64,000 nt of DNA from Hyphomicrobium sp. (GTDB lineage: Bacteria > Pseudomonadota > Alphaproteobacteria > Rhizobiales > Hyphomicrobiaceae). Below, one piece after another: positions 59,508 to 62,500 of this stretch. The position numbers were made by a program, and so were the translations under genes. The stretch covers positions 6,859 through 70,858 of the forward strand of contig JANLYX010000018.1 in assembly GCA_031365865.1 (NCBI GenBank), given 5' to 3'. Position 1 is the stretch's first letter, and every line of letters starts with the position of its first letter. The notes beneath the pieces are model-generated. The model made no database searches and was not told where the DNA came from. It saw nothing but the letters and a program-made list of their open reading frames with translations.

Positions 59508-62500
59508 ATGTCCGATAAAGCCAAAGCCCCCGAAACATCCACCGGCAAGCCAGAAGGGCGCGACTGGAGCAAGACGCTGTTCCTGCCGCAGACCGAGTTT
59601 CCGATGCGCGCCGGCTTGCCGGAGCTTGAGCCGAAGTTGCTCAAGCGCTGGGACGAGATCGGGCTTTACAAAAAGCTGCGCGCCCAATCGATGGGCCGGG
59701 TCAAGTTCACGCTGCACGATGGCCCGCCGTATGCCAACGGCAACATCCACATCGGCCATGCCCTGAATAAGATTTTGAAGGACCTGGTCGTCAAGTCGCA
59801 GCAGATGCTTGGCCACGATTCCAATTACGTGCCGGGCTGGGATTGCCACGGCCTGCCGATCGAATGGAAGATCGAGGAAGCCTATCGCGCTAAAGGAAAA
59901 GAGAAGCCGAATTTTTCAGACCCGGTGGCGATGAATGCGTTTCGCGCCGAGTGCCGCGAGTTCGCGAAACATTGGTTGAGCGTGCAGCGCGAGGAGTTCA
60001 AGCGCTTGGGCGTCGTCGGCGATTGGGATCATCCGTATTCGACGATGGATTTCCGCGCCGAGAGCATCATCGCCCGCGAGCTGATGAAATTTGCGAGCAC
60101 AGGGCAACTCTATCGCGGCTCCAAGCCGGTGATGTGGAGCGTGGTCGAGAAGACCGCGCTGGCGGAGGCCGAGATCGAGTATCAGGATTATCAGTCCGAT
60201 ATGATCTGGGTAAAGTTTCCTGTTGTTGGTTCGGTCTCTTACTTGAAAGAAAAAGACTCCAACGTCGAGACCGCGCTAGGTGCATCAGTTGTCATTTGGA
60301 CGACCACGCCCTGGACGATACCTGGCAATAGGGCAATCTCATTTTCAAAAAAGATCAGCTATGGACTATTTGTTGTTGACGAGGCACCGCCGGATAATTG
60401 GCTGAAGACAGGCGACAAGCTTGTCCTAGCCCACGAGCTTGCCGATCAGGTTTTCAAACAAGCCAAGGCCATAAAATGGCACAGGCTCGGGACTGTCAGC
60501 CCGGAACTTGCACAAATCGTCTGCGCTCATCCGCTAAATCCGTTGTCTCCGGTGATCCTAGAGTCCGGCGCAGGTTTCGGGGGCGGCTCAGACGAATGGA
60601 TCAATGCATTTGGCGGCCTCTTCCGAAATGTTCTATCGAGTAAGATTGTGGGCCATGAGGATGGCAGCGGTTGGCACACGTCAAACTTTGGCGTTCAGCC
60701 GCCTTACACCTTCCCCGTCCCGCTCCTCGATGGCGATCACGTCACCGACGACACGGGCACCGGTTTTGTCCACACCGCGCCGGGGCATGGCGCCGACGAT
60801 TACATCATCTGGACCAAGAACCAGAAAGCGCTGCGGAAACGCGGTATCGACACGACGGTGCCGTTCACCGTCGACGCCGACGGCGTCATGACGGAGGCCG
60901 CGCCCGGCTTCACCGGCAAGCGCGTGCTCAAGGAAAACGGCGACAAAGGTGACGCCAACGATGCGGTGATCAAGGCTTTGCAAGAGGCCGGCAACATCAT
61001 CGCGCGCGGACGTTTGAAGCATCAGTATCCGCACTCGTGGCGCTCGAAAAAGCCGGTGATCTTCCGCAACACGCCGCAGTGGTTCATCGCCATGGATAAG
61101 GTGCTGCACTTACCCGCCCCCCTTGTGGGGGAGGGCAAGGGAGGGGGGAACTCCGTGAAGGCTGCCGTTGGGGACTCCTCAATTGCGCGCTCCGGGATTC
61201 CCCCCACCCCTAACCCCTCCCCACAAGGGGGAGGGGGATTGAACGCGCCAACGTTGCGGCAGCTGGTGCTCGAGGAGATTACGCGCACGGAGTGGGTGCC
61301 GAAGTCGGGACAGAACCGCATCACGGGTATGATCGAATCGAAACCCGATTGGGTGGTGTCGCGGCAGCGCGCCTGGGGCGTGCCGATCACGGTGTTTCGC
61401 AATTCCGAGACCGAGCAGGTGATCCCGGGGCCCGCGCACGGTTCATCGAATGACGGCGCGTGGACAGATGAAAAAAATGCCGAGCTGATGGCGCGCATCG
61501 AAAAGGCCTTCGCGGAAAAAGGCGCCGACGTCTGGTTCGAGGCGGACGCCAAAGAGCGGTTTCTGAAAGGCCTCATTCCAGATGCGGAAATGGCGCAGTG
61601 GCAGCAGATCAAGGACGTTCTCGACGTCTGGTTCGATTCAGGGTCGACGCACGCCTTCACGCTCGAAGACCCGGTGGCCTTTCCCGGTCTCAAGGGCTTG
61701 ACGCGCCGCATCGATGGCGGCCAAGACAAGGTCATGTATTTGGAAGGCTCGGACCAGCATCGCGGCTGGTTTCATTCCTCCTTGATCGAAGCTTGTGGCA
61801 CCCGCGGCCATCCGCCCTACGATGTCGTGCTGACCCACGGCTTCGTGCTCGACGAGAAGGGTCGCAAGATGGCGAAATCGGACGGCAACGTCGTCGCGCC
61901 GCAGGCGGTCATCAAGGAATCGGGTGCCGACATTTTGCGCTTGTGGGTGGCGTCATCGGATTATTCGGATGACCTGCAGATTGGTCCGACGGTTTTGAAA
62001 ACGTTCAGCGAGACCTATCGCAAACTGCGCAACACCTTGCGCTGGATGCTCGGCGCGCTGGCGCATTTCAAGCCCGGCGATGAAATCGCAGTGGCCAAGA
62101 TGCCGGAGCTAGAACGGCTGATGTTGCATCGTCTCGCCGAACTCGATCCCGAAATCCGCGAGGCGTACAAAACCTATGATTATCGCAAGGTTGTTGGGCT
62201 GTTGTCGCAGTTCATGAACACCGAATTGTCGGCGTTCTATTTCGACATCCGCAAGGACACGCTGTATTGCGATGCGCCGTCGAGCGTGAAGCGCAAGGCC
62301 GCGCTGACCGTCATTGATAGGCTGTGCGACGCCTTGATCAAATGGCTAGCGCCGATTTTGTCATTCACGGCTGAGGAAGCGTGGATGCTGTACAAACCCA
62401 ACGACAGCGAGAGCGTGCATTTGCTGCCGTTTCCTGAAATCCCCCACAAGTGGCGCGACGATAATCTCGCTGGCAAGTGGGACCGCGTGCGGGCCGTCCG

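Follow-up and report, generated by a model that had tools for sequence, protein, structure and literature searches.

Where does a 56-residue peptide in the editing domain of isoleucyl-tRNA synthetase (IleRS) come from, when the relatives of the enzyme make do with a turn of four or five residues at the same place? This question is raised by the ileS gene in a 64,000-nucleotide stretch of Hyphomicrobium sp. (assembly GCA_031365865.1, contig JANLYX010000018.1, positions 6,859 to 70,858 of the forward strand), which we call the window and in whose own numbering all positions are given. The peptide, hereafter the module, is a lineage-sporadic insertion in a synthetase editing domain, the CP1 domain, and it lies in a mosaic region of the gene; with a probability of roughly 0.6, we argue that this rare loop module reached the lineage by recombination with a module-bearing ileS allele. 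The features on which the argument rests are the following.

59508..62861, forward strand: ileS, encoding a type-1 bacterial isoleucyl-tRNA synthetase of 1117 amino acids (aa), from the open reading frame and its translation.

60300..60317, forward strand: the Thr-rich editing motif TTTPWT (aa 265-270), equivalent to Thr241-Thr246 of the E. coli enzyme.

60537..60704, forward strand: the inserted module, NPLSPV...GVQPP (aa 344-399, 56 residues), delimited by alignments.

60756..60800, forward strand: the editing motif GTGFVH...GADD (aa 417-431, with GTGFVH at aa 417-422), intact.

Judged by its sequence, the host protein is a type-1 bacterial IleRS (IleRS1) and probably functional. It matches the Pfam families PF00133 (9.5e-121) and PF08264, the anticodon-binding domain (2.3e-25), its closest solved structures are those of bacterial IleRS (chain 8c9e, E 1.4e-202; 1ffy, 1.1e-185), and the translation holds the class I signatures 'NIHIGH' and 'KMAKS'. 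The gene is flanked by ribF upstream and lspA downstream, and its product is the sole IleRS of the assembly, a whole-genome tblastn search otherwise leading to paralogues of 22-25% identity. In an alignment to E. coli K-12 IleRS, H422 falls on His333, which lies within GTGxVH downstream of the insertion, and D431 falls on Asp342; all four editing residues whose roles have been described for the E. coli enzyme (Thr241, Thr246, His333 and Asp342; PMC9023258) are kept, and the TTTPW and GTGFVH motifs are intact, as an earlier reading of the sequence alone (the sequence-only reading) had stated. Since IleRS is single in both of the near-complete genomes that carry the module, this one and the Pinisolibacter genome described below, the module-bearing enzyme presumably works.

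The same sequence-only reading had pointed to an extra peptide between CAHPL and YTFPVPLL, where rhizobial IleRS would have only a few residues, and the alignments return precisely this. In 24 full-length relatives aligned with MAFFT the site is a turn of 4-5 residues, reading HPL-xxLG-Y.F.VPLL where the ileS product has 'CAHPL-NPLS...', so that substitution of the turn by the 56 residues of the module yields a net gain of 52 aa. The net extra DNA is 156 bases, placed by alignment at 60546-60701; whole-genome matches in 40/40 relatives stop at aa 346 and restart at aa 400, with about one codon between. On the E. coli protein the insertion point maps to 310/311 (HPF|MGF, a short turn), ~23 residues upstream of the GTG motif, and on the modelled fold it lies between the CP1 strands …IVCA(HPL) and (F)PVPLLDG. 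Solved IleRS structures leave two stretches of the ileS product unmatched, aa ~346-407, the insertion treated here, and aa ~530-582, to which we return below.

On this evidence we regard the extra peptide in the CP1 editing domain as a genuine insertion. The window protein does come from one contig only, in a metagenome-assembled genome of 97 contigs that is 96% complete with an estimated ~3% contamination, and the 156 bases could in principle be a chimeric join made during assembly or binning. Such an artefact would, however, hardly be expected to keep the frame with no stop over 52 codons and to land exactly in a hairpin turn, and same-site homologues are found in independent assemblies of other lineages; we consider it most improbable. 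An intein or mini-intein was rejected as well: inteins begin with Cys, Ser or Thr, end with His-Asn followed by Cys, Ser or Thr, and are longer than ~130 aa, whereas the first residues of the module are Asn-Pro, its last are Pro-Pro with Tyr coming next, and it has only 56 aa. Translational bypass was dismissed on sequence grounds.

The distribution of the module is sporadic in the extreme. Its own genome is the single carrier among 64 in the genus, neither a DNA search nor a three-sequence profile having found it in any of the 63 others. Among 400 genomes sampled from the order and searched in six frames, one carrier came up (G424), with 56% identity (E 1.9e-13) at the same IleRS site, whose protein was identified by exact look-up as the isoleucine-tRNA ligase of Pinisolibacter sp. 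(WP_333825221.1); an independent ENA assembly encodes this protein as well, at 99.8% identity and with no difference in the module. This carrier is the only one among 22 genomes of its family and among four of its genus, the three congeners reading HPL-AALG, HPL-AGLG or HPL-HGLGEG and then Y.FVVP. The module is single-copy in both genomes. A third carrier emerged when a profile was run against 5.8 billion proteins. It is encoded on a contig of 78.5 kb from ERZ1700618, and its organism is nearest (80-84% identity) to genomes of yet another family; the turn is short in all five of its six nearest relatives that were checked, the site of the sixth lying beyond the fetched locus. The carriers represent three family-level lineages of one alphaproteobacterial order, each of them alone among its sampled kin.

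The ileS of ERZ1700618 is called as two overlapping genes of 536 and 655 aa (L124:6560-6611), because the frame shifts within a run of G that follows 'SVPLL', immediately past the module; this may reflect either an assembly error or a genuine pseudogene. Its IleRS also has a Lys/Ala/Pro-rich N-terminal extension of ~140 residues (L124:5001-5420; KKNKTKRAAPRAKPT…AKAKPATKPK…). The open ileS frames of its relatives (L146-L151) span 1100-1390 aa, which suggests that basic N-terminal tails of this kind are widespread in the family; the K/A-rich leader of Hyphomicrobium IleRS is far shorter.

The three modules are pairwise 46-56% identical, occupy the same site and share 21 invariant columns (NP..P, GAG.GGG, W, F.GL, EDGSG, PP); no Pfam family was found on any of them. 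Immediately after the module the carriers read Y-[TSA]-F-[PS]-VPLL where non-carriers have Y-[DG]-F-[DV]-VP, a shared signature that fits a recombination tract. Beyond these three, a word-based search of the 5.8 billion proteins with the insert region matched the query alone, and profile searches of the same collection added nothing to Pinisolibacter and the ERZ1700618 contig. Among 1.84 billion cluster representatives, a hidden Markov model matched three proteins weakly, all of them repeat proteins and none an IleRS; for IleRS this outcome is hardly informative, since a cluster formed at 50% identity may contain the insert without its being present in the representative. The module was likewise absent from 400 sampled genomes of the class, from plasmids searched by DNA and from phages searched by protein. 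Two metagenome scans, with protein patterns and with a degenerate EWI[ND]xFGGL DNA pattern, produced 59 loci, none of them IleRS, and a genome-contig scan produced, among the matches listed, only a MurD gene (Butyrivibrio murD, L063). The core of the module resembles a stretch of this MurD and single repeats of a metagenomic beta-propeller-like repeat protein (P0004, …GETEWINAYGG…); both resemblances are short and were judged to be chance. Nor did we find a report of the module, or of a mosaic ileS CP1, in the literature. Relatives bearing the same insert with genome-typical codon usage, which the sequence-only reading had named as the finding that would speak against a foreign cassette, were not encountered; the close relatives have no insert.

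The distribution of the module is at odds with the descent of the flanks of the gene. A tree of the flanks places the window IleRS as sister to an insert-free congener (SH-aLRT, an approximate likelihood-ratio support value, of 99), nested in the genus, and on this tree the trait amounts to three changes. Composition deviates too. When low blocks were placed by a two-breakpoint likelihood scan of third-position G+C (GC3), the module itself emerged as the best low-GC3 segment of the Pinisolibacter gene, at 0.48 against 0.93 (likelihood-ratio test, LRT, 75). In the window the module has a G+C of 0.56 and a GC3 of 0.60 against 0.78 (binomial p 0.002), and in the ERZ1700618 contig its GC3 is 0.56, with 0.55 in the preceding 110 codons and 0.87-0.93 elsewhere. 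The DNA of the window and Pinisolibacter modules is ~62% identical, the identity being concentrated in conserved peptide blocks, and the proportions of nonsynonymous (pN) and synonymous (pS) differences are 0.30 and 0.84, the latter saturated; purifying selection has therefore acted on the module peptide, and the copies have long been separate from one another.

Recombination with a module-bearing ileS allele, the reading that we prefer, would account for these observations as follows. The donor would have been an unsampled lineage of lower G+C whose ileS allele carried the module. The highly conserved stretch downstream of the module could have served as the homologous anchor, paired with a short stretch of identity at HPL at the opposite end. 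Because the variable stretch beside the module looks native in each carrier, what is shared across the families is essentially the module plus a few flanking codons. It is the direction of transfer and the recombination mechanism that we infer here; the insertion, its homologues, its distribution, its composition and the mosaic pattern are observed.

The mosaic pattern becomes apparent upstream of the module; two further features have to be considered.

60180..60704, forward strand: a low-GC3 block (aa 225-399), with a GC3 of 0.55, compared with 0.78 for the remainder of ileS (LRT 36.9), and a G+C of 0.51 compared with 0.60.

60216..60536, forward strand: the hypervariable N-terminal half of CP1 (aa 237-343), which holds a length-variable loop at aa ~240-262 and the conserved TTTPWT.

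The abrupt drop in G+C inside ileS noticed by the sequence-only reading was reproduced exactly, with 40 of 90 bases at 60211-60300 and 53 of 90 at 60121-60210. The all-position minimum (~0.48, at 60175-60475) lies upstream of the insert, and the stretch preceding the module has a GC3 of 0.55. The codon-adaptation index of the low block is 0.57 as against 0.77-0.83 in the flanks, and rare codons make up 13 of its 174 codons but only 4 of 890 outside; ATA and AGG occur even at conserved residues beside TTTPWT. Genome-wide, a GC3 this low places a window of the size of the block in the lowest 2%, and a within-gene contrast that is equal or larger is found in only 8 of 809 long open reading frames.

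This block is nevertheless not private to the genome. The same GC3 dip at aa ~237-345, with coincident borders, is present in many insert-free congeners (0.47-0.63 against ~0.8) and in three other families, and thus in four families altogether, the dips being mild where the genome is low in GC; it is missing from one clade of the genus (0.76-0.87). In Pinisolibacter the variable stretch is GC3-rich (0.94-0.97), and only the module is low. The claim that a foreign or hypervariable cassette has recombined into ileS is thus supported in part, as regards the insert, which is real, atypical and patchy, and the hypervariability of this part of CP1, but not as regards the low-GC block as a peculiarity of this genome. 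The whole of 60180-60704 looks foreign because the module sits at the 3' edge of a half of the editing domain that behaves as a mosaic and is often low in GC3.

Divergence follows the same borders. Over aa 266-346 the protein is 47-65% identical to that of its congeners, and in the flanks 79-96%; in sister pairs the nucleotide identity falls abruptly from ~0.9 in the flanks to ~0.55 at aa ~230-345. At codons for identical residues, synonymous differences are in excess in the stretch both for the pair L011-L019 (0.65 against 0.34 in the flanks, p 1e-5) and for the window against its sister L009 (0.58 against 0.41, p 0.025), whereas three control pairs of the clade without the dip show no such excess. 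Within the genus, cassette replacement is seen most clearly when L004 (G015) is compared with L003 (G011): the flanks are 95% identical and the CP1 stretch (aa ~230-345) is 73% identical, synonymous divergence (dS) is 1.36 as against ~0.5 in the flanks, and L004, although nested in the clade without the dip, has a GC3 of 0.61 in the stretch where L003 has 0.87. A second genus, of another family, repeats the pattern, with flanks 98-99% identical and a stretch only 64-85% identical. In our reading, alleles have been replaced repeatedly in a sub-domain of CP1 that is under weak constraint, such that across the order the N-terminal half of the editing domain would be a mosaic, fast-diverging and often low-GC3 cassette with the module at its 3' edge. 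The variable stretch of the window is closest to that of a congener (L017, 65% identity) and was thus not visibly imported together with the insert. Of the per-segment trees that had been proposed as a check, that of the flanks is incongruent with the distribution of the module; that of the stretch alone was unresolved and star-like, with no signal as to whether the stretch moved together with the module.

The block could also have evolved in place, under weak protein and codon constraint and AT-biased mutation, the insert being a tolerated expansion of a floppy loop. A dip with the same borders in many lineages of several families, including low-GC genomes where it is mild, does look like a regional property, the star-like segment tree agrees with this, and even in the very close pair L003-L008 the ratio of nonsynonymous to synonymous divergence (dN/dS) in the stretch is several times that of the flanks at equal dS. 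However, this explanation has difficulty with a clade that escapes the dip and yet contains L004 with its strongly raised dS, with rare codons at conserved residues next to TTTPWT, and with Pinisolibacter, where the stretch is GC3-rich and the module alone is low. Furthermore, the three modules are homologous, so that separate origins of the insert in the individual lineages are excluded. Evolution in place is, in our estimation, an unlikely explanation.

A second in-frame insertion in the same gene, unrelated to the module, bears on whether ileS may be a target of mobile DNA.

61095..61255, forward strand: an in-frame insertion at aa ~530-582, a translated palindromic repeat that appears as a gap against IleRS of the Protein Data Bank (PDB).

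In its own genome the repeat exists in dozens of copies, its DNA finding 66 matches there, one of them a self-match on the reverse strand. Congeners differ in whether they have it and in how long it is, and it gives rise to hairpin-like, spurious Rfam matches. A translated repeat of the same kind (SPSPLAGEGRGGGWS…) is found in L133 (G415, of another genus and family), in the IleRS loop that is equivalent to aa 237-262 of the window protein, just after 'FPL'. Taken with the module, these repeats define at least three insertion-tolerant spots in the IleRS of this taxonomic order: the loop at aa ~240-262, the turn HPL|Y, and the site of the repeat at aa ~530-582. Further downstream, a 276-aa open reading frame between ileS and lspA (62858-63688, forward strand) has no Pfam match.

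In-frame repeat insertions thus do occur in ileS, and one might suppose that the module, too, is a small selfish or mobile element with a preferred, in-frame insertion site, either of the Rickettsia palindromic element type or as a homing cassette. Its occurrence at one site in three lineages and the discrete compositional island that it forms in Pinisolibacter would suit such an element. Its other properties would not: it is single-copy in both carrier genomes, no direct or inverted repeats bound it, no Rfam family was found in it, its RNA fold is not significant (z -1.58), its DNA is absent from the 63 congeners and from plasmids, and its protein is absent from phages. It is conserved as a peptide while its synonymous sites are saturated, which is the opposite of what is expected of an element maintained at the level of DNA. 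We therefore deem a mobile element very unlikely.

What might the module do? Structure prediction of the insert, which had been suggested as a check, gave a divided answer: in two AlphaFold models of CP1, of the window and the Pinisolibacter proteins, the host fold is modelled well (predicted local distance difference test, pLDDT, 70-96), but the module reaches a pLDDT of only 35-54. The predicted elements differ somewhat between the models, with, at low confidence, helices in that of the window and a short helix TEWIDKF plus a hairpin KIVE/GYAA in that of Pinisolibacter; a protein-atlas feature search returned nothing usable for the module, and the searches of families, motif libraries and the literature pointed to no function. 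The conserved aromatic and hydrophobic pattern is more suggestive of a small folded excursion than of a disordered linker. The module would probably be a surface excursion composed of a Gly-rich loop, a short amphipathic helix (EWI..F.GL) and a hairpin (KIV..EDGSG-aromatic). Such a fold would leave the editing pocket intact, and any effect would fall on the surface contacts or the dynamics of CP1 rather than on catalysis; for both fold and function, this is what we infer.

A bolder proposal is that the N-terminal half of CP1 and the module together form a surface under diversifying selection, with diverged alleles being shuffled by recombination between species and families. Possible agents of this selection are phage factors, toxins and natural inhibitors that dock on CP1. 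We put this forward as a speculative and rather doubtful extension of the recombination reading.

Several of our own observations weigh against the transfer that we favor. Of the marks of a mosaic gene the module displays an incongruent distribution and a deviating composition, but not an identifiable donor: no donor lineage was identified in any collection searched. For the copy in the window, a single contig from a single metagenome-assembled genome is the only source. The raised synonymous divergence in the CP1 stretch could in part reflect weaker codon bias rather than older ancestry, and the low pLDDT of the module in both models makes the proposed fold weak. The modules have diverged to about the same extent (46-56%) as the adjacent variable stretch of the same lineages (53-57%), and the GC3 of the module matches that of the adjoining stretch in both the window (0.60 and 0.55) and the contig (0.56 and 0.55), as would be seen if an old module had been lost many times by allele replacement.

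That history is the main rival to transfer. The module would have been present in the common ancestor of the three families and descended vertically, with many losses, mostly through replacement of CP1 cassettes, and the island in Pinisolibacter would be a relic that survived the substitution of a high-GC3 allele for the neighbouring stretch. Besides the comparable divergence and the matching GC3, the saturation of pS between the modules and the native appearance of the variable stretch next to each of them agree with great age, and precise loss would be mechanistically easy, because cassette replacement is documented in the genus. On the other hand, with the carrier nested among insert-free species (0/63), several independent losses are needed within this genus alone, and losses are likewise needed in the other two families. 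Apart from Pinisolibacter, the module was found in 0/400 of the sampled genomes of the order and in 0/400 of those of the class. It is also hard to see how an unameliorated GC3 of 0.48 could be maintained for so long in a gene at 0.93. Vertical descent with repeated loss is thus a serious possibility, although not one that we would call probable, and we retain recombination with a module-bearing allele as the better account of the present distribution.

The editing domains of synthetases are commonly viewed as drug targets and as housekeeping parts that stay conserved, and the module sits close upstream of the GTG motif, whose His rejects the cognate product. If it alters editing, tRNA handling or the binding of a partner, it represents a natural experiment in the remodelling of CP1. 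If the cassettes reflect recombination under selection, sub-genic exchange takes place in a common phylogenetic marker gene, and care is needed both with ileS in trees and with the use of its GC3 for calling foreign DNA. If diversifying selection is indeed at work, ileS would have to be seen as an arms-race locus rather than as a plain housekeeping gene.

How does the module compare with what is known? Lineage-specific (idiosyncratic) insertions are known in the CP1 of class Ia synthetases, the CP1 modules of LeuRS being an example. Like these, the ileS module is a short extra peptide in a CP1 surface loop that leaves the catalytic and editing motifs untouched; unlike them, it resides in IleRS, has no sequence similarity to any described module, occurs in three lineages in a patchy rather than clade-specific manner, and is compositionally deviant. 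The nearest functional reference, E. coli IleRS, has the same four editing residues and simply a short HPF-MGF turn in place of the 56 residues. With the Rickettsia palindromic elements, and with the repeat at aa 530-582 of the very same protein, the module shares the property of being an in-frame insertion of ~50 residues that is tolerated in a loop of an essential gene; it differs from palindromic repeat insertions in being single-copy, non-palindromic and conserved as a peptide rather than as DNA. Finally, mosaic essential genes that arise by interspecies recombination are well known, the classic case being the genes for penicillin-binding proteins, and horizontal transfer of whole aminoacyl-tRNA synthetase genes has reportedly been reviewed. 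As in mosaic genes, ileS combines abrupt, divergent and composition-shifted blocks with an otherwise conserved housekeeping sequence, such that sister species differ strongly only in the block. In contrast to the penicillin-binding protein genes, however, the alleles are too old for a donor to be named, and the block corresponds not to a drug-binding site but to one half of an editing domain.

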